Origin: an uncultured Candidatus Saccharibacteria bacterium
GTDB taxonomy: Bacteria; Patescibacteriota; Minisyncoccia; UBA6257; XYB1-36-10
DNA: 64,000 nt
Reading direction: 5' to 3'
Assembly: GCA_964362215.1 (NCBI GenBank)
Contig: CAYIDJ010000002.1
Location: 911-64,910, forward strand
Shown one piece after another: positions 1,895 through 58,351 of this stretch (positions within the stretch are counted from its first letter, which is position 1; every line of letters begins with the position of its first letter). The position numbers and the translations under genes are program-made. The notes under the pieces were generated by a model. It was not told the origin of the DNA, ran no database searches, and was given only the letters and a program-made list of their open reading frames with translations.

Positions 1895-1994
1895 CTGGAT
1901 TCCCGCTTTCACGGGAATGACAGAGGAGGGGACTGGATTCCAGCTTCCGCTGGAATAACAAGGCGGAAGGGATGGATTCCAGCTTTCGCTGGGA
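1895..1994. repeat. Three tandem REP-like hairpin units (CTGGATTCC-N-GGAATGACA type)
   Basis: ctggattcccgctttcacgggaatgaca (1895-1922), ctggattccagcttccgctggaataaca (1933-1960), ggattccagctttcgctggga (1972-1994). Each is a short stem-loop. They lie in the divergent intergenic region. Confidence 0.8.
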
Positions 1995-2131
1995 CCCGCC
2001 CAACGGAGTTGTTCGGGCAAGTGACAGAAAAGGAGAGGGAGTTGACAAGGGTTTTTATATGGTATATAATACGGCGGAATTAATATTCAGTCGGTTAGGG
2101 CGTTTATTTATTAGGTTTTAAGCAATAATTT

Positions 2132-3966: not shown

Positions 3967-4410
3967 ATGATGAAGGCAGAAATTTTAAAATCATATTTTG
4001 AAGGTAAAGGAGGAAATAGCGCCATGATTTCATTTAATAAGGCAAAACGACAAAGTACGTGGCTGGATATAATTTTAAAGGAGCCGGAGTATTTTGGTGA
4101 ACCATATGTTTTAGAATTTGAGAAAGAAGTGGTGCTGGATGTGACGAATTTTGAAGTTCTAAACGATGTTTTAGGCGACCGGATGAATGAAGGAGTAAGA
4201 AAGTTGGTGGTTGATATGGGAAACGTCAGCCGTATGACCGCTAATGCTTTAGCGGTACTAACCGCCAAGAACGAAGAGTTTAAAGCGAAGGGCGGGGAGA
4301 TAGTGCTGGCTAACCTAACTTTGTTAATGGAGAATTTTTTAAGAGAATTGCACTTTGATACGATTTTCCGTATTTTTGGAAGTGTGGAGGAGGCGATGGA
4401 CTTATTTTAA
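3967..4410 (+). CDS. STAS-domain protein (anti-sigma-factor antagonist, SpoIIAA-like)
   Basis: AAGGAGGA SD before the ATG. 'LVVDMGNVSRMTANALAVLTAKNEEFKAKGGEIVLANL...LHFDTIFRIFGSVEEA' matches the STAS fold pattern. Confidence 0.7.
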   Translation: MMKAEILKSYFEGKGGNSAMISFNKAKRQSTWLDIILKEPEYFGEPYVLEFEKEVVLDVTNFEVLNDVLGDRMNEGVRKLVVDMGNVSRMTANALAVLTAKNEEFKAKGGEIVLANLTLLMENFLRELHFDTIFRIFGSVEEAMDLF

Positions 4411-4419
4411 TGAAGAGGA

Positions 4420-4447
4420 CTGGATTCCTGCTTTCGCAGGAATGACA
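4420..4447. repeat. REP-like hairpin copy
   Basis: ctggattcctgctttcgcaggaatgaca directly after the STAS gene stop. Confidence 0.8.
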
Positions 4448-4562: not shown

Positions 4563-5426
4563 ATGAGGAAGATATTTTTTATCGCAGTGATGGTGGTGGC
4601 GGTGGGGGGAGTTTGGTGGTGGGGACAACAAAACGGTATTTCCTGGCGAGAACTGCCGGCAGAGTTTATGGCGCTGGTTGAGGATTCTTTTAAGCGGGAA
4701 GTGGAGTGGAAGACGACGACGATAGGAGAGAATCGGAAGTTTACGGCGGATGTGCCGGAGAATTGGGAGGCGACGATTAGCGGGAACGGGCTTACCCTTT
4801 CCAGTCCGGAGTTAGGAGAGACAATAAAGATTGAAACAGCTTCAACAACGGTGACGTTGCCGGTGGAGGAAGTCAGCCGGAGCGAGACGGTTCAGGTTGG
4901 GGGGCAGGAAGCGGTGGTGGTGCGGGGAGAAGGAGAAGAACCGGATACGGCTTATGTGCCTTTGCCGGACGGGACGCAAGTAGTGGTGACGGGCAAGGGG
5001 GAAGTATTTGAAGAAACATATAAGCGGATTGACCCGACACCGAACGAGCCGGACTGGAAACTGTTGGGAGTGGAGGCGCCGGAGACGGAGAGAATCGCGG
5101 CGGTACTGGACGAGTATTTGCCGAAGTTCGCGCCGGAACCGGCGGCGGCCGGAAAAAAATGGCAGAGCGAGGCGGTAGTCAGAATTATCGGACAACCGTT
5201 CGCTTATGTGGGATATGGGGATGGGGAAAGTAAACAGACGCTGATTATTAATTTGATGACGCCAGCAGGAGAGGTACCGGCGACTATCGGCTATTACAAA
5301 ACGGAAATAAAACAACAAGGAGGAAAGTGGGTGGTGATGGGTTCGCCGGACAAGGCAATTGCGATTTTGCCGGAGGCGGCGGCGGGATACGCGAAGGGGA
5401 GTGGCGGCACGTGGGAGAAGAAGTAG
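4563..5426 (+). CDS. Membrane-anchored hypothetical protein
   Basis: ORF 4473-5426. I prefer the internal ATG at 4563 (MRKIFFIAVMVVAVGGVWWW signal anchor) because an extended -10 (TGgTATAAT, 4545-4553) lies 9 nt upstream. Confidence 0.55.
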   Translation: MRKIFFIAVMVVAVGGVWWWGQQNGISWRELPAEFMALVEDSFKREVEWKTTTIGENRKFTADVPENWEATISGNGLTLSSPELGETIKIETASTTVTLPVEEVSRSETVQVGGQEAVVVRGEGEEPDTAYVPLPDGTQVVVTGKGEVFEETYKRIDPTPNEPDWKLLGVEAPETERIAAVLDEYLPKFAPEPAAAGKKWQSEAVVRIIGQPFAYVGYGDGESKQTLIINLMTPAGEVPATIGYYKTEIKQQGGKWVVMGSPDKAIAILPEAAAGYAKGSGGTWEKK

Positions 5427-5431
5427 GTTTT

Positions 5432-5536
5432 AGTAAAAGATAATTGTTTGTGAGACACGTGTATTTTCTGGCTGGAAAATCACTCTGATTCGCACCGCCG
5501 TGCTCCGCGCGGTCTCACAAACAATTATCTTTTACT
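5432..5536. repeat. Long hairpin element, family C copy 1 (25-bp perfect inverted repeat, ~55-nt conserved loop)
   Basis: agtaaaagataattgtttgtgagac (5432-5456) is the exact reverse complement of 5512-5536. The loop ends in ctctgattcgcaccgccgtgctccgcgcg, which is shared with 42694-42748. Confidence 0.85.
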
Positions 5537-5606
5537 GTACACTTGGCTCTGGCGAATGTTTTTGTCGATTGGATTGTGCCGAGGGGAAAGAAATTATATT
5601 TAAGAT

Positions 5607-5656
5607 AGCCTGCCTAAATTTTTACATGAGTAAAAAATTAGGCAGGCTTTAATTTT
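5607..5656 (+). terminator. Terminator-like hairpin of the AGCC(C/T)GCC-AT-rich family
   Basis: agcctgcctaaattttta-catgag-taaaaaattaggcaggct followed by ttaattttt. Confidence 0.6.
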
Positions 5657-5733
5657 TATACACAACCGAAGGCAGATTTTAGTTTCGGTTTGTGGTAAAA
5701 TTACGAAGGCGGTTAGAAATAATTTTTTATAAA

Positions 5734-6627
5734 ATGAATTTGTTTGATTTTAAGGAGCAGGGAATATTTGCGATGGCAGCGCTGGACCATCGGCGGAGTT
5801 TGATGAAGATGCTGGGGAGTGGCGGCAAGCGGAAAATGACGGAGTGGAAAGAAGAAGCGTTGGGTGGCCTTGCGGGGGTGGCGTCGGGAGTGTTGCTGGA
5901 TATGGAATACGGATTGCCGGCTTACCGGAAGTTAAAATTAAACAAGCCGTTTTTGTTGGCGATGGAGGCGAGCGGGTGGACGGGAACGGAAAATAATCGC
6001 CGGACGCGGCTGGCGCACTCGGCGAGAGAGATAAGAGAGGCGGGGGCGGGGGGAGCAAAGTTACTGGTTTATTATAATCCGGCGGCGAAGGGGGCGGGGG
6101 AAGTGAAAAAGACAGTGGCGCGGGCGGCGGAGCAGTGCCGAAGAGAGGAAATTCCGTTTTTGCTGGAAGTGATGACGTATAAAGTTGACGGGAGAGAAAA
6201 AAAAGCCGACTTGATTATTAAATCAATAAAAGAATTAGAGACGGGGAAAGTGGATGTATGGAAGCTGGAGTTTCCGGGAGACGCTAAAACGGCGGCAGGA
6301 AGGAAAAAAGCGGCAGAGGCGTGCCGGAAAATAACGGAGGTGCTTGGAGACAGACAATGGATACTGCTTTCGGCAGGAGATGATTTTAACGTGTTTAAGA
6401 GGCAGGTTGATGTGGCGACGGCGAATGGGGCGGCGGGGTTTTTGGCGGGTAGGGCTTTGTGGAAAGATTTTGGAAAATATAAGAATAGGAAAAAGTTTTT
6501 TACGGGAGTAACAAGGAGGCGTTTAGAGCAAATCAAAAAAATAGTGGTGGAAAATAAAGGGGGACACACTGACGTTTTTAGTCGTAGTTTCGGTCGGAGT
6601 TTGTGGTGGAAGGAGTTGTGGAGGTAG
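5734..6627 (+). CDS. Class I aldolase, LacD/DeoC family (tagatose/fructose-bisphosphate aldolase-like)
   Basis: 'FAMAALDHRRSL', 'AKLLVYYNP', 'PFLLEVMTY', 'VWKLEFPGD', 'ILLSAGDDF', 'GFLAGRALW' follow the LacD-type TIM-barrel pattern. ATG at 5734 preferred over the upstream GTG at 5692. Confidence 0.6.
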   Translation: MNLFDFKEQGIFAMAALDHRRSLMKMLGSGGKRKMTEWKEEALGGLAGVASGVLLDMEYGLPAYRKLKLNKPFLLAMEASGWTGTENNRRTRLAHSAREIREAGAGGAKLLVYYNPAAKGAGEVKKTVARAAEQCRREEIPFLLEVMTYKVDGREKKADLIIKSIKELETGKVDVWKLEFPGDAKTAAGRKKAAEACRKITEVLGDRQWILLSAGDDFNVFKRQVDVATANGAAGFLAGRALWKDFGKYKNRKKFFTGVTRRRLEQIKKIVVENKGGHTDVFSRSFGRSLWWKELWR

Positions 6628-6635
6628 GTGTGTTT

Positions 6636-6688
6636 GAGTGGAGTTAAGGTAGCTGTCTTTTTACAAAAAAAGACAGCTTTTGATTTTT
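6636..6688 (+). terminator. Conserved 3-prime module (GAG..GTTAAGGTAGC + hairpin + T tract), stand-alone copy
   Basis: gagtggagttaaggtagctgtc-tttttacaaaaaaa-gacagcttttgattttt right after the aldolase stop. Confidence 0.6.
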
Positions 6689-6789
6689 AGGAGCGGTGTT
6701 GTTGTTGACTGATTTTGATGGATGTGGTATACTAATTGAAGTTAAATAACTTTGATAATAAAAAAATAAATAAATAAGGGAGAAAAAAG

Positions 6790-7728
6790 ATGATAAGGAA
6801 AGCGGATGGAAAGAAGTTGCCGGTGATTGACGGGAAGTTGGTAGCGCATCTTGACCGGTGCGGGCGATTGATACGGCGAGCGCACATTGCTGTGGTAGCC
6901 ACGGTTTTCTTTTTACTGGCGAGTTTGTGCGCCGTTTACGTGACTCTTTCGGGAGTGTTTGTGGGAGTGGCGGCATACTATTTATTGTATGTTGATGGGT
7001 TTTTTGCCGCGGCAACTGTAATAAGTGCCGGACTTGTTTTCTGGTGGTTTAGAAAAGCTAGAAAGAACCGAGTGGGGGTGGAGATGATAAAGATTCGCTA
7101 TCAGCCGGGAGGAAAGAGCGAGGAGTTTATTATTATTTTTCCGGCTGACGGGAAGCCGCCTATTGAAGTGCCTTTCGTTGAGTTTAAAAAATTAGGCGGA
7201 AGGCACAAAATACCGCCGGTGTGTTATTATCGGGCGCCGGGCAAGACGACTGTGATTGCCTCTTGGAAGTTCTCGGTTATAGAAATGGAGTGTTTTGTTT
7301 TTATATGCGAGGATGCTTCGCCGGCGGCTTTGTTTAGATTCTGTCCAAAACCTCTAAAAGGAGCTGGTTTTGTTGAGCAAATGGAACTAGTTTTGGGAGA
7401 ATGGCTATCAAACAAATGCAGTGCCTGTAATGACGAGAAGCGAGTTTGGAAGCGGTTGGAAGCAGTAGGAGAATGCTTAAAACATAATAAGTATATTCCT
7501 TTCCGTTGCGGATTTTCAATTGAGGTGAAGGTTCGTAAAATACTGATGGACGGAAGGATGGTTTGGTCGGATGATATTATAATAAGAATATCAAAAAAAG
7601 CTCTTCGTGATATTCTGCGTCCCGGTAATCTGTGGCAACAAAGAGCTAAGAAAAGATTGCCGATGGGCAGAATTGAGCTAGTGGAAGATGACGATGTGAA
7701 AAAAAGAGTACATTCAGCCCTGCGTTAG
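6790..7728 (+). CDS. Hypothetical membrane protein
   Basis: 312-aa ORF with two or three N-terminal TM segments and a Cys-containing C-terminal domain. No motif recognised. Confidence 0.5.
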   Translation: MIRKADGKKLPVIDGKLVAHLDRCGRLIRRAHIAVVATVFFLLASLCAVYVTLSGVFVGVAAYYLLYVDGFFAAATVISAGLVFWWFRKARKNRVGVEMIKIRYQPGGKSEEFIIIFPADGKPPIEVPFVEFKKLGGRHKIPPVCYYRAPGKTTVIASWKFSVIEMECFVFICEDASPAALFRFCPKPLKGAGFVEQMELVLGEWLSNKCSACNDEKRVWKRLEAVGECLKHNKYIPFRCGFSIEVKVRKILMDGRMVWSDDIIIRISKKALRDILRPGNLWQQRAKKRLPMGRIELVEDDDVKKRVHSALR

Positions 7729-11676: not shown

Positions 11677-12450
11677 GTGAGTTATACTCCGTGGGTTATG
11701 TCGCAGTATTATAAACCGAACCGAAATCCGGAGTGGAATTACGGGGGGCGGAACTGGAAATTGTCGCGGAGCAAGATTGATTTGTTTAAGGAGTGCCCGC
11801 GCTGTTTTTATATTGATAATAAGTTGGGGGTGGCGCGGCCGCCGGGGTATCCGTTTTCGCTGAACGCGGCGGTGGATGCTTTGTTAAAAAAAGAATTTGA
11901 TATTCATCGGGCGGCGGGAACAACGCATCCTTTGATGAAAGCGTACGGGATTGAGGCGGTGCCTTTTCGGCATTCTAAAATGAATGAGTGGCGAGATTCG
12001 CTAAGGGCGGGGGTGCAATTTTATCATGAGCCGACCGGTTTGCCGGTGAAGGGAGGAGTAGACGATATTTGGATGGGGCGGGACGGGAAGCTTTTTGTGG
12101 TTGATTATAAGGCGACGAGTAAGGAAGGGGAAGTTAATTTAGACGCGGCGTGGCAGGACGGGTATAAGCGGCAGATGGAAGTTTATCAGTGGCTGTTGCG
12201 GCACAACAGTTTTGTGGTTTCGGATACGGGATATTTTGTTTATGCTAACGGGCGGACGGACAGAGAAGCATTTGACGGGAAACTGGAGTTTGATGTAAAA
12301 GTAATTCCATACACCGGAGACGACGGATGGGTGGAGCCGACACTTTTTAAGATAAAAGAATGTCTGGAGGAGAAGGAAATACCGGCGGCGGGGGCGGATT
12401 GCGATTATTGCCGGTATAGGGGGGCGGTGGAGAAAGTTCAAAGTTTATAG
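11677..12450 (+). CDS. PD-(D/E)XK nuclease, Cas4/RecB-like with Cys cluster
   Basis: 'CPRCFY' near the N-term and 'CDYCRY' at the C-term (4-Cys pattern). 'GGVDDIW...LFVVDYKATSK' is D...D/ExK. 'QMEVYQWL' is a QxxxY motif. No CRISPR or cas genes nearby. Confidence 0.65.
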   Translation: MSYTPWVMSQYYKPNRNPEWNYGGRNWKLSRSKIDLFKECPRCFYIDNKLGVARPPGYPFSLNAAVDALLKKEFDIHRAAGTTHPLMKAYGIEAVPFRHSKMNEWRDSLRAGVQFYHEPTGLPVKGGVDDIWMGRDGKLFVVDYKATSKEGEVNLDAAWQDGYKRQMEVYQWLLRHNSFVVSDTGYFVYANGRTDREAFDGKLEFDVKVIPYTGDDGWVEPTLFKIKECLEEKEIPAAGADCDYCRYRGAVEKVQSL

Positions 12451-12487: not shown

Positions 12488-12542
12488 CTGGATTCCTCTG
12501 CCATTCGTCAGTTGGCGGAGGCGGAGGCGGACGGGAATGACA
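12488..12542. repeat. REP-like hairpin with nested GGCGGAGGCGG-type insert
   Basis: ctggattcc...acgggaatgaca arms enclose tctgccattcgtcagttggcggaggcggaggcgg, which is related to the hairpin at 31628-31658. Confidence 0.7.
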
Positions 12543-22573: not shown

Positions 22574-22590
22574 AAAATATGTTTTGTGAT

Positions 22591-22791
22591 ATTCTCCCCA
22601 TTACCATCGGCTCCGCTATTCGCTTAAAGCGAGTAATATTCACTCCCCTCTAATTTGGCTTATAAAACGGCTGGTTCCCGTTCCTCCCAAGGGGATTTTC
22701 CGACCAGCCGTTTTATAAAAGCCAAATTCTTCGTTGCGTTCATTTATCGCTAATTAAGCTCATAGAAGTCGCCAATGGTAATAGGGAGAAT
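22591..22791. repeat. Nested palindromic element, family A copy 1 (~200 bp)
   Basis: attctccccattaccatcggc (22591-22611) pairs with gccaatggtaatagggagaat (22771-22791). Inner arms ...ggcttataaaacggctggt / accagccgttttataaaagcc also pair. Homologous to 34824-35040. Confidence 0.85.
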
Positions 22792-22810
22792 AATTTACCC
22801 TTTTTATTTG

Positions 22811-22880
22811 GAGAGGGGGTTGGACTTAAGGTAGCCCGCCAAAATTTTTGCTTGCGCAAAAACTTAGGCGGGCTTTTGTT
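22811..22880 (+). terminator. Conserved 3-prime module: GAGAGGGGGTTGGACTTAAGGTAGCCCGCC hairpin + T tract
   Basis: agcccgccaaaatttttg-cttgcg-caaaaacttaggcgggct then tttgtttt. The same module recurs at 8 other sites. Confidence 0.7.
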
Positions 22881-22881
22881 T

Positions 22882-22917
22882 TATCCACTTATAATACATA
22901 TGTATTATAAGTGGATA
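22882..22917. repeat. 36-bp perfect palindrome P1 (TATCCACTTATAATACATATGTATTATAAGTGGATA)
   Basis: It is its own reverse complement. Related copies are at 37772-37807 and 46275-46310, with half copies at 26081-26095 and 42601-42610. Confidence 0.85.
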
Positions 22918-24247: not shown

Positions 24248-24817
24248 TCATTGAGCAGCGGAAATTTCTTCTTTTTCAAGAATCGCTGCTATTTTCTTAA
24301 TACAGGCATAGGCCTTGGGAGAGTGGATGCTGGTAAAGCAAAAGATGTTTTTATATTCTTCCACGGTTGAGGCGAATTCCATGGCCTTCTCCAAGGCCTT
24401 TCTTTCCACCTCGCTGCCGCCTGGAGCTTTCCGGCAGATACCCAGACACTCTTTCACGGTTGAGGCGAATTCCATGGCCTTCTCCAAGGCCTTTTTTTTC
24501 ATCTCGCTGCCGCCTGGAGCTTTCTGGCAGATATCCAGACACTCTTCCACGGTTGAGGCGAATTCCATGGCCTTCTCCAAGGCCTTTTTTTCCACCTCGC
24601 TGCCGCCTGGAGCTTTCCGGCAGATACCCAGACACTCTTCCACGGTTGAGGCGGAGAGAAGTTTCTTCATTATGTCGGTTTCCTCCGGTAATGGCACATC
24701 GAGGGCTGAACAAACTTGGTCTCTTTTGTCTTGACCAAGAATCAGGCACAACCTATCAACTAACACTGAATTGTCCATAACAGAACTCCCTTCACTTTTT
24801 TGGGTTTTAATTAACAC
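24248..24817 (-). CDS. Tandem-repeat protein (31-aa helical repeats ASTVEECLxICxKAPGGSExxKKALEKAMEF)
   Basis: The longest of several open frames over the repeat (189 aa) and the only one with unique N- and C-terminal flanks. It sits between a terminator and a divergent promoter region. Confidence 0.5.
   Translation of the reverse strand: MLIKTQKSEGSSVMDNSVLVDRLCLILGQDKRDQVCSALDVPLPEETDIMKKLLSASTVEECLGICRKAPGGSEVEKKALEKAMEFASTVEECLDICQKAPGGSEMKKKALEKAMEFASTVKECLGICRKAPGGSEVERKALEKAMEFASTVEEYKNIFCFTSIHSPKAYACIKKIAAILEKEEISAAQ
24362..24653. repeat. 93-bp tandem repeat, ~3.1 copies, near-identical
   Basis: cacggttgaggcgaattccatggcc recurs at 24362, 24455, 24548 and 24641, an exact 93-nt (31-codon) period. 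Confidence 0.9.
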
Positions 24818-25955: not shown

Positions 25956-25987
25956 GGCGGGAGGAAAAAATATAAAGTTCAGGCAAT

Positions 25988-26095
25988 ATTCTCCCCATTA
26001 CCACTGGCTCCGCTATTCGCTTAAAGCGGATAATATTCGCTCCAATCCAATTTGGCTTATAAAATGACCGGTTCCCGTTGTTTTATAAGTGGATA
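25988..26095. repeat. Family A left arm only (truncated copy) fused to a half P1 palindrome
   Basis: attctccccattaccactggctccgctattcgcttaaagcgg...ggttcccgtt, then ttttataagtggata. The right arm is missing. Confidence 0.75.
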
Positions 26096-31627: not shown

Positions 31628-31658
31628 ATCCGCCGTCCGCCAGTTGGCGGAGGCGGAT
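31628..31658 (+). terminator. GC-rich hairpin after lysS (ATCCGCC-GTCCGCCAGTTGGCGGA-GGCGGAT)
   Basis: A nested perfect stem, followed by an A-rich rather than T-rich tract. The core is related to the 16-bp palindromes at 40539 and 40750. Confidence 0.45.
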
Positions 31659-34823: not shown

Positions 34824-35040
34824 TATATTCCCCCACCACCATTCGCTCCGCTACTCGCTCAAAGCGAATAATATTCGCTCCGTTCTAATTTGGCTTATAA
34901 AATGACTGGTTCCCATTCCTCCCTCGATAGAACCTCGGGATTTTCCGACCAGTCATATTTATAGAAGCCAAATTGTTCATTCCGCTCATTTATCGCTTAT
35001 TAAGCTCGTAGAAGTCGCGAATAATGATGGGGAGAATATA
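34824..35040. repeat. Nested palindromic element, family A copy 2
   Basis: tatattcccccaccaccattcgc pairs with gcgaataatgatggggagaatata. Collinear with 22591-22791 throughout. Confidence 0.85.
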
Positions 35041-35055
35041 AACTATTCTTCCTGG

Positions 35056-35125
35056 GGGAGAGGTTGGATGAGAATGTAGCCCGCCAAAATTTTTGCTTAC
35101 GCAAAAACTTAGGCGGGCTTTTGTT
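35056..35125 (+). terminator. Conserved 3-prime module (GGGGAGAGGTTGGATGAGAATGTAGCCCGCC hairpin + T tract)
   Basis: Hairpin agcccgccaaaatttttg-cttacg-caaaaacttaggcgggct (35078-35118), then tttgttt. Confidence 0.7.
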
Positions 35126-35191
35126 TATATGGGAAAATCGGAATTGAAAAAAAACAGCGCCGAGGGTTTGGGTTTTTTTAATGTTAGTTGG

Positions 35192-37183: not shown

Positions 37184-37768
37184 ATGTTATTCACAAGAAG
37201 GAGTTTTGAGCCGCGAGCAACGGTGAGGTTGGCGAGGGAATTGCTGGGAAAGGTTTTAGTTCGCCGGATAGGACGGAAAGAAATACGGGCGGTAATTACG
37301 GAGACGGAGGCGTATCACGGGCTGAAAGACAAAGCCAGCCACGCGGCGAGAGGAAAGACGAAGCGGAACGCGCCGATGTGGGGAGCGGCCGGACACTGGT
37401 ATGTTTATTTTGTTTACGGAAATCACTGGATGCTTAACTTGGTGACGGGACCGGAAGAATACCCGGCCGCGATTTTAATAAGGGGAATTTCAAAAATTAA
37501 AAATCAAAAATCAAAATTTAGGAGGTCTGCTTCGCAGACTTTAATTAAAAATAAAGACGGTGTAGTCAGTGGGCCGGGGAGGGTGGCGAAGTTTTTGAAA
37601 ATTGACGGGAGTTTGAGCGGGCGGCCGGCAAGCCGGAAGACGGGACTATGGATTGAGGACGGAGGAGAAAAAATAAAGCCGTCGCGGATTAAGGCAGCGG
37701 CGAGAGTGGGGGTCAATTACGCGGGGAAGGAGTGGGCAGGGAAGAAGTGGAGGTTTAAATTACTTTAA
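37184..37768 (+). CDS. DNA-3-methyladenine glycosylase (AAG/Mpg family)
   Basis: 'LARELLGKVLV', 'ITETEAYHG..DKASHA', 'GHWYVYFVYGNHWMLNLVTG', 'AILIRG', 'GPGRVAKFLKI'. Confidence 0.85.
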   Translation: MLFTRRSFEPRATVRLARELLGKVLVRRIGRKEIRAVITETEAYHGLKDKASHAARGKTKRNAPMWGAAGHWYVYFVYGNHWMLNLVTGPEEYPAAILIRGISKIKNQKSKFRRSASQTLIKNKDGVVSGPGRVAKFLKIDGSLSGRPASRKTGLWIEDGGEKIKPSRIKAAARVGVNYAGKEWAGKKWRFKLL

Positions 37769-37771
37769 TAT

Positions 37772-37856
37772 TATCCACTTATAAAACATATGTTTTATAA
37801 GTGGATAGGTTGGGTGTGGTTACTATAATTTTTCCACGGTCGTTGGAAAATTATAG
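37772..37856. repeat. Two-hairpin module: P1 palindrome (37772-37807) + H2 hairpin (37823-37856)
   Basis: tatccacttataaaacatatgttttataagtggata, then ctataatttttccacggtcgttggaaaattatag. The same pair is found in reverse order at 46231-46310. Confidence 0.8.
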
Positions 37857-39345: not shown

Positions 39346-40908
39346 TTAGATATGGAAGACGGGGGCGGTGGGGGGAATAGAGTCGGTTTGAGGGGGGAGA
39401 AGGTAGAAGATGTTTTTGGTTTGGCGGTTTTCGGGTGACCAGGTATCGGTTAAGAATATTACGGTTTGGGCGGGCATGGGGAGGCCGCGGACGTCAACGC
39501 CGCCGGAGTCCACAATGACGTATTTTGGAATGGCGGAGGGAAGGGAGTTTATTTGAGCGGCGAGGTCAACATAGTTTTGGTTGAAGGCGCCGGCGGTTTC
39601 AGGATTTTGTCCCCATTTAAGGAAGTAGGTGTCGTAAGTATTTATAGTAATGGTGGCGAGGAAAATTATGGCAAGAGCAAAGAGAAAACGGCGCTGGCGG
39701 GGGAGAATGGTTTTAAGATGTTCATAAACATAGATACCGCCTAAAGCGGAGAGAATAAAGACGGGCGGAATCATCAGAATAGCGCGGAGGGCGTGGGGAA
39801 GGCCTTCGTTAGAAATTACTACCGGTAAGGCAGAGATAAATAACCAAGAAAATAAAATAATCGGAAGTAACAGCGATGAATTATGGACTGGATTCCCGCT
39901 TTCGCGGGAATGACGGAAGAGTGTATAAAGTGAAATGGGGATACCGATTAAGAACAGTATACCGACGGGCCAGTAGAGCTGGGGCGCGCCAGCAAGGTTG
40001 TGGCGCCAGTTGCCGTCGCCCGCAAAATTAAACATAGCGGCGGTTTTGGAGGTATTTATAACCAGGTCTTTAAGAGGAGAAGCGGAAGAAAAGACAGATA
40101 TTTGGGAGGTACGGCCGAGGAAATCGGCGGGGTTATTTAGGAAATACAGGCCGAGCGGGGCGGCGGTGATGACAGCGCCAATGGTGAAGGCGGCGGCGGC
40201 TTGCCAGAATTGTTTGGAGCGCCAGAAGAAAGGAATAAAGACAAGAAAGAGCAGGGGCATAGCGCGGTAGGCGATGTAAGAATATAAACCGAGGCCAAAT
40301 ATTATCCCACTAAGGACGGCGGGGATGATGAATAGCCGCCACCCGGCAGGTTTCGGCCGCGCCTGTTGGCGAGCGGGGGAAATGGATTTAAGAAAAAAAT
40401 AAAGAGCCCAGATGAGAAAAGCAGGAGCCATAATGGCGCGGAAGCCGACGCGGGAGAAGTTGATGTGCCAAAAGCTCACGGCGAGGAAAAAGGAGGAGAG
40501 AAGAGCAGTAACCTCGCCGCGAGAAATCCTAAATCCTATCCGCCAGCTGGCGGACGAAACTCTAAATAATTCTTTGGTTAGGAAAAATAGTCCCAGAACG
40601 GTTAAGATACCGAAGATAGCGGAAGGGAAGCGGAGCGCCCAGGGTTGGGTGGGGGAGATGCCGGAGTTTTCCAAAGAGCCGAGGAAGGCGGCCTGGATGT
40701 TTATGAAAAGTCCTTCGCGGCCGTTGTTTTCGGGGTAGAAAACTTTGTATCCGCCAGCTGGCGGACTTGTGTGAAGCGCTTCCAGAGCGTTGTTGCCATT
40801 CATGGCCTCGTCCGGATAGAGGCCGGGAGGGGTAGAGGAAAGATTATAAAGCCGGAAGAAGGAGGCAATAGCAATTATAAGAATGAGCCAAACCCAAGTT
40901 TTTTTCAT
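39346..40908 (-). CDS. GT39-family (ArnT/PMT_2-like) glycosyltransferase carrying three in-frame palindromic inserts
   Basis: 520 aa and polytopic. 'LYPDEAMNGNNALEA...FYPENNGREGLFINIQA' is typical of this family. It contains a REP copy (39888-39915) and two 16-bp palindromes. Confidence 0.75.
   Translation of the reverse strand: MKKTWVWLILIIAIASFFRLYNLSSTPPGLYPDEAMNGNNALEALHTSPPAGGYKVFYPENNGREGLFINIQAAFLGSLENSGISPTQPWALRFPSAIFGILTVLGLFFLTKELFRVSSASWRIGFRISRGEVTALLSSFFLAVSFWHINFSRVGFRAIMAPAFLIWALYFFLKSISPARQQARPKPAGWRLFIIPAVLSGIIFGLGLYSYIAYRAMPLLFLVFIPFFWRSKQFWQAAAAFTIGAVITAAPLGLYFLNNPADFLGRTSQISVFSSASPLKDLVINTSKTAAMFNFAGDGNWRHNLAGAPQLYWPVGILFLIGIPISLYTLFRHSRESGNPVHNSSLLLPIILFSWLFISALPVVISNEGLPHALRAILMIPPVFILSALGGIYVYEHLKTILPRQRRFLFALAIIFLATITINTYDTYFLKWGQNPETAGAFNQNYVDLAAQINSLPSAIPKYVIVDSGGVDVRGLPMPAQTVIFLTDTWSPENRQTKNIFYLLPPQTDSIPPTAPVFHI
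39888..39915. repeat. REP-like hairpin inside CDS (encodes RHSRESGNPVH)
   Basis: ctggattcccgctttcgcgggaatgacg matches the intergenic copies at 1895, 4420 and 12488. The reading frame is maintained. Confidence 0.8.
40539..40554. repeat. 16-bp perfect palindrome TCCGCCAGCTGGCGGA inside CDS (read as SASWR)
   Basis: Exact palindrome. A second identical copy lies 211 bp away. Confidence 0.85.
40750..40765. repeat. 16-bp perfect palindrome TCCGCCAGCTGGCGGA inside CDS (read as PPAGG)
   Basis: The same 16-mer as 40539-40554, translated in a different phase of the same gene. Confidence 0.85.
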
Positions 40909-42665: not shown

Positions 42666-42776
42666 CAGAAGCCCAGTTTCCTGTTTGTTGGACACGGATA
42701 TTTTTTTGCTAAAAAATTCCTCTGACTCGCACCGCCGTGCTCCGCGCGGTCCAACAAACAGGAAACTGGGCTTCTC
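42666..42776. repeat. Long hairpin element, family C copy 2 (27-bp perfect stem, conserved loop)
   Basis: agaagcccagtttcctgtttgttggac pairs with gtccaacaaacaggaaactgggcttct. The loop 3-prime half ctctgactcgcaccgccgtgctccgcgcg matches the copy at 5484-5511. Confidence 0.85.
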
Positions 42777-57800: not shown

Positions 57801-58191
57801 CGAGTAAATAAGGAAAGGACAGAAAAGTCATTCTGACGTTACGCCCGAACATTGGAATGACACAAGGAAGTTTGAACTTTGGGGTGGTTTGTGGGAAAAT
57901 AGGCGATAGTAGAGATTTATAAAAGAATAAAGAAAGAGAGGATTTGGCGATGGTAGGTTTAGTTAATCCAGCAGGTCCGCCTGTTTTGGGGGTTTTTAAG
58001 GTGACGTATCCAAATCCAATAAAGGAGATACCGAGCGGGATTAAGCGGTTAGAGGGTCCTTTTGCGCCGGAGAGTTCGCCTTCACAAATTATTATCGCTG
58101 ACACAAGGCAGTTTCGGCGTTGGCCGGTGCTTCATCCGTACAAGGGGCATAATTTAGATGTCCTCGCGTGAAATAAATAAGGATAACGCCG

Positions 58192-58229
58192 CCCGCCTAA
58201 ATTTTTTCCTAAGCAAAAATTTAGGCGGG
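58192..58229 (+). terminator. Terminator-like hairpin of the CCCGCC-AT-rich family
   Basis: cccgcctaaatttttt-cctaag-caaaaatttaggcggg, then tttttgttt. Confidence 0.6.
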
Positions 58230-58351
58230 TTTTTGTTTATTTATGTATTGCCGAATTCAGGCAGTTTTTGTGATAAAATAAATTCCAATGAAAATAATGG
58301 CGAGAATATAAAAACTTTAACTCGGGCGGGGTTTGTATTATTATTTAGTTA

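Follow-up and report, generated by a model that had tools for sequence, protein, structure and literature searches.

A CGTC-1/NTS-like hairpin repeat read in frame within a membrane glycosyltransferase gene of a Patescibacteria-like genome

Background

The CGTC-tagged repetitive extragenic palindromes (REPs) were defined by Di Nocera, De Gregorio and Rocco (2013, BMC Genomics 14:522, PMC3733652). Members of their CGTC-1 class have a CGTC or TGTC (or CCTC) head, an 8-bp stem beginning with AT, a 4-nt loop and a CCA tail, and include both dRS3 of Neisseria and RPE-6, a Rickettsia palindromic element (RPE), of Rickettsia conorii. They occur mostly as head-to-head dimers, with clustered arrangements noted in Neisseria and Wolbachia. 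The same study catalogues REPs that lie within genes, argues that many REPs act as RNA, and lists in its Additional file 3 the peptides encoded by CGTC-1 inserts of R. conorii: CHSRESGNP in RC1314, VIPAKAGI in RC0483 and RC0657, SFPRKRES in RC0382, SFPRKRES...LDSRFRGND dimers in RC0332, and WIPAFTGMT in RC1022. This report concerns a 28-nt hairpin unit of this class, at positions 39888-39915 of a 64-kb stretch of DNA from an uncultured Candidatus Saccharibacteria bacterium (the whole stretch that was analysed, called the window below), where it is translated in frame within the gene for a family 39 glycosyltransferase (GT39).

A second body of work describes the same unit as a nuclease substrate. 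Chenal et al. (2025, Nat Commun 16:2388, PMC11893778) give the 28-nt NTS as CGTCATTCCCGCGMAVGCGGGAATCYRG and report that NTS units are substrates of Ssn nucleases in Neisseria and Wolbachia. SsnA, a 94-residue single-domain GIY-YIG protein, binds and cuts one NTS strand, solely as single-stranded DNA, and does not bind RNA. The ssn genes, for small single-domain GIY-YIG nucleases (cd10448), are typically flanked by the repeat, a homologue is encoded by 81% of genomes with more than 200 motifs, and in N. meningitidis the NTS/Ssn system modulates natural transformation. The terms "intragenic" and "Patescibacteria" each occur 0 times in the text of that paper.

Results

The repeat unit and its reading frame

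The unit and its host gene are as follows.

39888..39915, minus strand: CGTC-1 REP or NTS-type hairpin by its sequence, CGTC-ATTCCCGC-GAAA-GCGGGAAT-CCAG
39346..40908, minus strand: GT39/GT-C membrane glycosyltransferase (ArnT/PMT-like), 520 aa, judged intact from homologues and fold prediction

The letters of the unit are CTGGATTCCCGCTTTCGCGGGAATGACG on the plus strand and CGTCATTCCCGCGAAAGCGGGAATCCAG on the minus strand; an exact 27-mer match covers 39888-39914, and the adjoining base completes the 28 nt. Dinucleotide-preserving shuffles of the window give an expectation of 0 matches. Read on the minus strand, the CGTC head lies at 39912-39915, the two arms around the GAAA loop pair at 8 of 8 positions, and the tail is CCAG, as in the other copies in the window. 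The hairpin has a folding energy of -13.6 kcal/mol (z -3.8). A first-pass annotation of the window had called this unit a REP-like hairpin repeat, which is correct.

The unit is in frame within the host ORF, where it encodes RHSRESGNP (aa 332-340), and the protein runs through it without a stop (...LFRHSRESGNPVHNSS...). It can be read without a stop in five of the six frames, including all three sense frames, the exception being GFPLSRE* (TGA), and its core length of 27 nt equals nine codons. No target-site duplication is visible at its borders.

Comparison with described repeat families

All sequence features of CGTC-1 are found in the window unit: the head, the 8-bp stem starting with AT, the 4-nt loop, the CCA tail and membership in a repeated family. 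The head-to-head dimer layout, a tendency of the class rather than a requirement, is not seen in the window, where single units or a head-to-tail triplet occur instead. The resemblance includes the multi-copy state, intergenic copies just downstream of genes, and in-frame copies that use the same peptide frames. The differences are of lineage and host protein, since Patescibacteria, or the candidate phyla radiation (CPR), fall outside the five phyla of the 2013 list and a GT-C glycosyltransferase is absent from its table ("glycosyl" gives 0 matches, PMC3733652).

The likeness to RPE-6 extends to the peptides themselves. RHSRESGNP in the window compares with CHSRESGNP in RC1314, and VIPAKAEIQ, found in an orthologue described below, with VIPAKAGI in RC0483 and RC0657. 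As with RPE-6-type in-frame insertions, the ORF stays intact and homologous to functional proteins, while the peptide has no counterpart in 119 of the 120 best homologues. The first-pass annotation had taken in-frame copies to be undescribed for this repeat type; this was wrong, because the R. conorii inserts (PMC3733652) read the same element in the same frames. Since CGTC-1 includes RPE-6, the likeness to RPEs is one of shared element identity, not of analogy alone.

The unit fits the NTS consensus at 28 of 28 positions, and a regular expression for the degenerate SRM pattern matches both it and the copy at 1895, against a shuffle mean of 0.2. This link to NTS and Ssn (PMC11893778) had been missed earlier. 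In contrast with the described NTS/Ssn systems, no ssn gene was found, as far as these 64 kb go.

The dRS3 repeat of Neisseria (ATTCCC-N8-GGGAAT) has the same palindromic core, with GCAG/CTGC as its most familiar loop in place of the GAAA of the window. In Neisseria, dRS3 is a target for integration of phage and of IS110-type elements; nothing like such integration is seen in the window. RPE-1 (Ogata et al. 2000) is said to be palindromic, to lie in frame in functional genes, to be tolerated at surface or loop positions, and to be about 100-150 bp long and specific to Rickettsia; both it and the window element are in-frame palindromes, but the latter has 27-28 nt and occurs in several phyla. 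The GTAG REPs and REPINs mobilised by RAYT (TnpA_REP) are likewise short extragenic palindromes, whose head is an asymmetric tetranucleotide and which often form inverted pairs. Membership in that group was rejected, as the head is CGTC and not GTAG, no Y1 transposase is linked to it in the literature, and the 40 window ORFs screened include none with a Y1_Tnp domain. Miniature inverted-repeat transposable elements (MITEs; 70-300 bp, 15-30 bp terminal inverted repeats, target-site duplication) were also rejected, the unit having only 27-28 nt and no visible duplication. Rfam has no family covering the hairpin, and a literature search with the five peptides as words found no paper. On the strength of its sequence we identify the element as a known pan-bacterial hairpin, named CGTC-1 REP, RPE-6 in Rickettsia, and dRS3/NTS or SRM in Neisseria and others.

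Other copies in the window

The whole window was scanned, without filters, with a covariance model built from 52 variants (see below). The scan returns four strong minus-strand copies, at 39889-39915, 4421-4447, 1896-1922 and 1934-1960 (E 5e-15 to 1e-9), the in-gene copy scoring highest (48.6 bits, E 5e-15), a single weak copy at 1973-1996 (E 0.14), and no copy in any coding sequence besides 39346-40908. The copies outside the gene are listed here.

1895..1922, minus strand: intergenic copy TGTCATTCCCGTGAAAGCGGGAATCCAG, 1 mismatch, SRM pattern match, 43 bits, first in a head-to-tail triplet
1933..1960, minus strand: intergenic copy TGTTATTCCAGCGGAAGCTGGAATCCAG, diverged, stem ATTCCAGC/GCTGGAAT kept through compensatory changes, 33.7 bits, E 1e-9
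1972..1999, minus strand: degenerate third copy of the triplet, 12 bits, E 0.14, weak
4420..4447, minus strand: intergenic copy TGTCATTCCTGCGAAAGCAGGAATCCAG, 2 mismatches that form a compensatory C:G to T:A change in the stem, 44.7 bits
12488..12541, minus strand: disrupted intergenic copy seen by direct reading of the sequence, ends GTCATTCCCG... and ...GGAATCCAG kept, centre exchanged for about 36 nt

The 64 kb thus hold four strong and two decayed copies where chance predicts none. Five intergenic copies had been proposed at first; three of them (1895, 1933 and 4420) are strong, and the other two (1972 and 12488) prove to be decayed. Every copy has its CGTC or TGTC head on the minus strand, TGTC being found in the 1895 and 4420 copies. 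The triplet at 1895-1999 sits in a divergent spacer (1760-2131). The 4420 copy begins 9 nt past the stop of a STAS-domain gene (3967-4410), and its 27-mer is found identically in a Rickettsia endosymbiont (locus L087); the 12488 copy lies 38 nt past the stop of 11677-12450.

Readings as a CRISPR array, a terminator or a MITE were rejected, in view of the gaps of only about 11 nt between units of the 1895-1999 cluster, the lack of a T-run, and the lack of terminal inverted repeats beyond the hairpin. The centre of the 12488 copy (12497-12532) is a GGCGGA-rich, palindrome-like segment, TCTGCCATTCGTCAGTTGGCGGAGGCGGAGGCGGAC, that partly resembles the second palindrome family described below; the sequence suggests one repeat nested within another.

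The host protein and the position of the peptide

The host protein has 4084 homologues, and those with names are glycosyltransferase family 39 proteins of Patescibacteria, Paceibacterota or Wolfebacteria. Shorter homologues have PF13231/PF02366; the host protein itself has no Pfam match. Every invariant column of the homologue alignment (A1) is retained in it, including PPGLYPDEA, NNGREG, FWHxNFSR, NWRHN and SNEGxPHxLR. Its AlphaFold2 model is confident (pLDDT 81.8, pTM 0.87), and a Foldseek search finds the GT-C enzymes AglB, STT3, Pmt4 and AftA at probability 1.0. Because the invariant residues are kept, the predicted fold is confident and the structural matches are to GT-C enzymes, we regard the gene as intact and not a pseudogene, in agreement with the first-pass annotation.

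In the model, aa 332-340 form the end of the helix at 313-336 and the turn before the helix at 344-365, with pLDDT of 68-74 against 92-93 in the flanks. Topology was assigned by counting helices from the basic N-terminus (inside) and from the C-terminal soluble domain (outside), rather than with a topology predictor. Both counts give 11 transmembrane (TM) helices, with the acidic motif in the first external loop, and place the TM8-TM9 turn that carries the peptide, as predicted from the model, on the cytoplasmic side, opposite the catalytic face. The segment from WPxG to LPVVxSNEG varies from 29 to 108 residues among 78 homologues (median 41) and has 44 in the host protein. The peptide therefore maps to a length-variable loop between two TM helices, as had been proposed.

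The repeat-bearing variable segments of the family map to three loops, between helices 89-118/130-143, 156-182/189-207 and 313-336/344-365, which helix counts on the model place in the cytoplasm. Several GT39 orthologues in the alignment (P0001, P0009, P0017, P0022, P0033 and others) have long lineage-specific inserts in three cytoplasmic loops; the peptides of these inserts (NWKLEIGNW, NWKLKIENW, FQFSIFNFQNWILEIRNW, KIKNWNLFGIWNLK) look derived from repeats, and P0033 has QQPEPQAxxGGEPSGERxAGAxDRVFSKA twice. Precomputed Pfam matches tend to be absent in the longer GT39 homologues.

A second palindrome, ATCCGCCAGCTGGCGGAC, was said to occur twice in the same gene, and it does so exactly, at 40538-40555 (encoding SPPAGG) and 40749-40766 (SASWRI); a diverged copy is intergenic at 31635-31652. 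Because several orthologues show similar peptides at the first site (DPPDGGY, APPDGGF, VPPASGF), the copy there may not be a simple insertion.

Orthologues keep the DNA and change the frame

Any of the five peptides that the unit can encode was found in just one of the 120 best homologues (of 4084), namely the closest, P0001, at 72% identity. The remaining 119 have none of the five, as the first-pass annotation required. The P0001 gene is present with identical sequence in two independent metagenome assemblies, L001 (ENA) and L122 (JGI). Its element, TGTCATTCCCGCAAAGGCGGAAATCCAG, occupies the same loop in the same orientation as the copy in the window, but is read in another frame, giving VIPAKAEIQ where the window protein has RHSRESGNP. 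The two elements are identical at 24 of 27 positions, compared with 65% at four-fold sites of the two genes (binomial P ~0.005), and the loop DNA that flanks the element on both sides cannot be aligned between them. Since the element is so well kept although the frame differs and the flanks are unalignable, the conserved object is the DNA hairpin, not the peptide. Its presence in both orthologues is accounted for equally by one old insertion under constraint at the DNA level and by two separate insertions in a permissive loop.

These data bear on the proposal that no real insertion exists, the motif being a chance palindrome, an ancestral coding motif, an assembly chimera or the mark of a pseudogene. 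The want of a Pfam match in the window protein and a loop length near the family median would fit that proposal. Shuffles, however, predict 0 matches, the fit to the published NTS consensus is 28/28, an orthologue has an element at the same site in two independent assemblies, and the ORF is uninterrupted, with its invariant residues kept and its fold confidently predicted; we consider the proposal barely credible.

A more distant orthologue (40% identity), on contig L174, has an in-frame inverted CGTC pair in a different loop, with the peptide SFPRRRESRPIKTWIPAFAGMT. This dimer was placed near the turn at 401-403 by eye, without aligning the L174 protein to the host protein, and is cytoplasmic by helix count. 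L174 is a CPR metagenome contig on which inverted pairs of CGTC-type units, at 4756-4844 and 6787-6884 (loops of 5 nt in one and 4 nt in one), stand on either side of a second large membrane protein gene, 4769-6724, in a layout that matches the NTS-gene-NTS arrangement discussed by Chenal et al. (PMC11893778). The called start of 4769-6724 falls in the repeat (MTRNPEFWIPAGVYPALDSRLRGND...); because the called ORF begins inside a repeat, its annotated N terminus is probably spurious.

Distribution of the unit and selection on its stem

A collection with a single genome for each bacterial and archaeal species, 596 Gb in all, was searched for the 20-nt core ATTCCCGCGAAAGCGGGAAT, with about one match expected by chance. 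The core occurs at more than 120 loci, a lower bound. Matches listed include Chloroflexota, Alpha-, Beta- and Gammaproteobacteria, Bacteroidota, Desulfobacterota, Planctomycetota, Verrucomicrobiota, Nitrospirota, Acidobacteriota, Omnitrophota, Cloacimonadota, Paceibacteria, Saccharibacteria, Peribacteria and others, and the exact core is also present in the Rickettsia endosymbiont locus L087. Asymmetric flanks, YGTC on one side and CCA(G/T) on the other, accompany about 90% of the 148 matches listed, many of which form inverted pairs 40-60 nt apart. Loci with inverted pairs include L006, L007, L016 and L174.

For a test of the stem, 52 variants were gathered by head and tail only. Stem cells are paired in 97% of cases, and 23 cells have changed on both sides; neither the pairing nor the covariation is matched in any of 500 shuffles. 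At stem position 3 the T:A pair is replaced by C:G, G:C or A:T, and at position 6 the C:G pair by G:C, T:A or A:T. The combination of near-complete pairing and double-sided changes, unmatched in the shuffles, means that the hairpin is under selection.

The hairpin might be selected as an mRNA element, either a ribosome pause that aids insertion of the next helix or an RNase site. The sense mRNA does fold to the 8-bp stem with a GNRA-type GAAA loop (-13.6 kcal/mol, z -3.8), the hairpin falls exactly between two TM helices, and many REPs have been argued to be RNA-active (PMC3733652). Such a role would sit badly with the 4420 and 12488 copies, which are antisense to their upstream genes, so that transcripts would bear the complementary strand; orientation in the window follows the DNA strand and not the direction of transcription. 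Moreover, SsnA has no RNA binding (PMC11893778), and 119 of the 120 best homologues manage without the element. We find an RNA function for the in-gene copy very unlikely.

Ssn nucleases, orientation and strand asymmetry

Five small GIY-YIG ORFs (PF01541) emerged from a local hidden Markov model (HMM) search of the retrieved loci. CGTC-1 units lie on either side of the ORF in L056 (Cloacimonadota) and L106 (Gammaproteobacteria), reproducing the NTS-ssn-NTS layout of Chenal et al.; in L105 (Anaerolineales) the layout is one-sided, with a single unit about 100 nt from the ORF.

The plus strand of the window is strongly skewed, with 20157 G against 10288 C and a GC skew of +0.24 to +0.39 in every 4-kb block. 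The skew stays at about +0.25 to +0.33 inside most minus-strand genes and is therefore not a coding-strand effect. The cleavable CGTC strand of the strong copies is always the C-rich strand. As evidence on orientation this is weak, because the copies number just four to six and three of these are clustered. A replication-strand bias finds no support as a general rule: over 70 informative loci of other genomes, orientation relative to local GC skew divides 37:33.

On these facts one may ask whether selection maintains the in-gene copy as a site used at the DNA level, for instance an Ssn-type cleavage or recombination mark in DNA uptake or repair that the protein merely tolerates. Identity of 24/27 between orthologues that share 72% of their residues and 65% of four-fold sites, despite differing frame and flanks, would agree with this, as would the compensatory changes that keep the stem across phyla, the demonstration that NTS units are real Ssn substrates in Neisseria and Wolbachia (PMC11893778), and the constant placement of the cleavable strand on the C-rich strand. 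Yet no Ssn gene was found in the window, the orientation argument is weakened by the few and clustered copies and by the even division in the 70 other loci, and two recent independent insertions in a permissive loop explain the identity equally well. We rate selection for such a site as unlikely.

A common 86-aa GIY-YIG protein of Patescibacteria was considered as the evident NTS partner and set aside, having no NTS or SRM within 2 kb in five loci and terminal inverted repeats of its own, which are absent from the window. The gene is of interest in itself. It encodes a single-domain protein of 86-89 aa that is 72-92% identical across many Patescibacteria classes and lies in a different operon in each genome. 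All five loci are outside the window:

L202, 2001-2261: GIY-YIG gene
L203, 2001-2270: GIY-YIG gene
L204, 2001-2261: GIY-YIG gene
L205, 699-959: GIY-YIG gene
L206, 2001-2261: GIY-YIG gene

Inverted repeats of 14 bp, ATCCCGTACGAAAT ... ATTTCGTACGGGAT in slightly varying form, flank the gene, and each border bears an in-frame TGA, inside ATGA in most loci. In L202 the left TGA is the stop of the LeuRS gene; the gene downstream is called as starting at the ATG of the right ATGA in L202, L204 and L205. The whole resembles a mobile unit, about 285 bp long, with ATGA stop/start overlaps as its insertion sites.

Other repeats and features of the window

Dispersed repeat families of 45-110 nt are present in the window, and some are palindromic (D2, D3, D11, D17).

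22801-22881, 35046-35126, 58158-58238 and 5575-5655: dispersed repeat
22589-22682, 25986-26079 and 34824-34917: dispersed repeat
5445-5523 and 42682-42760: dispersed repeat
22873-22917 and 37763-37807: dispersed repeat

A 93-nt tandem repeat occurs three times at 24357-24653. A match to bacterial RNase P RNA at 47568-48063 spans 496 nt against a 367-position model, with about 130 nt of insertions.

Discussion

The 28-nt unit in the GT39 gene is a copy of a multi-phylum DNA hairpin repeat, most likely carried there as a neutral or nearly neutral passenger. On this reading the hairpin acts at the DNA level; in Neisseria and Wolbachia one strand of such units, in the form of single-stranded DNA, is bound and cut by Ssn. 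Tolerance would be expected because all three sense frames are open (five of six overall), because the 27-nt core amounts to nine codons, because the predicted site is a short cytoplasmic TM8-TM9 turn, away from the catalytic face and variable in length in orthologues, and because RHSRESGNP is hydrophilic and basic, as a cytoplasmic loop should be. Passenger status is something we infer, as are the cytoplasmic side of the loop and any involvement of an Ssn nuclease in this organism.

Several observations weigh against this interpretation. The element is better conserved between the two orthologues than four-fold sites are, an excess that fits two independent insertions but also a DNA- or RNA-level constraint, under which the copy would not be purely neutral. 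A search for an empty site in closer relatives found none, either in the protein database, with a single relative above 57% identity, or in the metagenome scan, which returned L122 again and otherwise orthologues of at most 54% identity; for this reason we infer the insertion event and do not see it. The host loop, at 44 residues against a median of 41, is not unusually long, and the element may have replaced older loop sequence instead of adding to it. The original description of the unit as inserted thus stands as to an element in a variable loop whose peptide orthologues lack, and falls short as to an empty site and a lengthened loop. Searches of the 64-kb window by regular expression, with a local HMM on every ORF of 50 aa or more, and with Pfam on 40 ORFs found no GIY-YIG or Ssn gene. 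Those 40 ORFs are housekeeping genes and have no transposase domain; 10 ORFs of a division and cell-wall cluster (48.6-62.9 kb) were covered by the local GIY-YIG HMM and not by Pfam. Orientation shows no bias in the 70 loci of other genomes, and the Ssn link is unproven for the Patescibacteria lineage because its common 86-aa GIY-YIG protein has no NTS or SRM within 2 kb in the five loci.

Patescibacteria are thought to depend on DNA uptake. It is conceivable, if improbable, that the in-gene copy belongs to an NTS/Ssn-type system in this group, in which units are kept in coding DNA as sites where a single-stranded-DNA nuclease trims incoming or replicating DNA. Such a system, if real, would explain why the unit is conserved beyond synonymous sites despite drift of the frame, why the cleavable strand is on the C-rich strand in all copies of a skewed region, and why repeat-derived peptides gather in cytoplasmic loops of CPR membrane proteins.

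As a passenger, the copy is an ordinary case of a documented effect, in which a short palindrome is tolerated in frame in a protein loop; in-frame occurrence of the element with nearly the same peptide has already been documented in Rickettsia (PMC3733652). What is new is the lineage and the protein class in which the unit is found, together with the orthologue pair that reads it in two frames, and nothing beyond these. How a near-identical 28-nt unit reached so many phyla, and what spreads it, are larger questions that lie beyond the window. With a copy that fits the consensus exactly, the finding adds a Patescibacteria-like genome and a GT-C membrane enzyme to the range of CGTC-1/NTS, and the two-frame pair is a clear demonstration that the hairpin DNA, not the peptide, is conserved. 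There is also a warning for annotation. Insertions of this kind lengthen loops, and the repeat-bearing protein here has no Pfam match where shorter homologues do; RHSRESGNP, VIPAKAGIQ, SFPRKRES, LDSRFRGND or WIPAFAGMT in proteins of any phylum marks the repeat.

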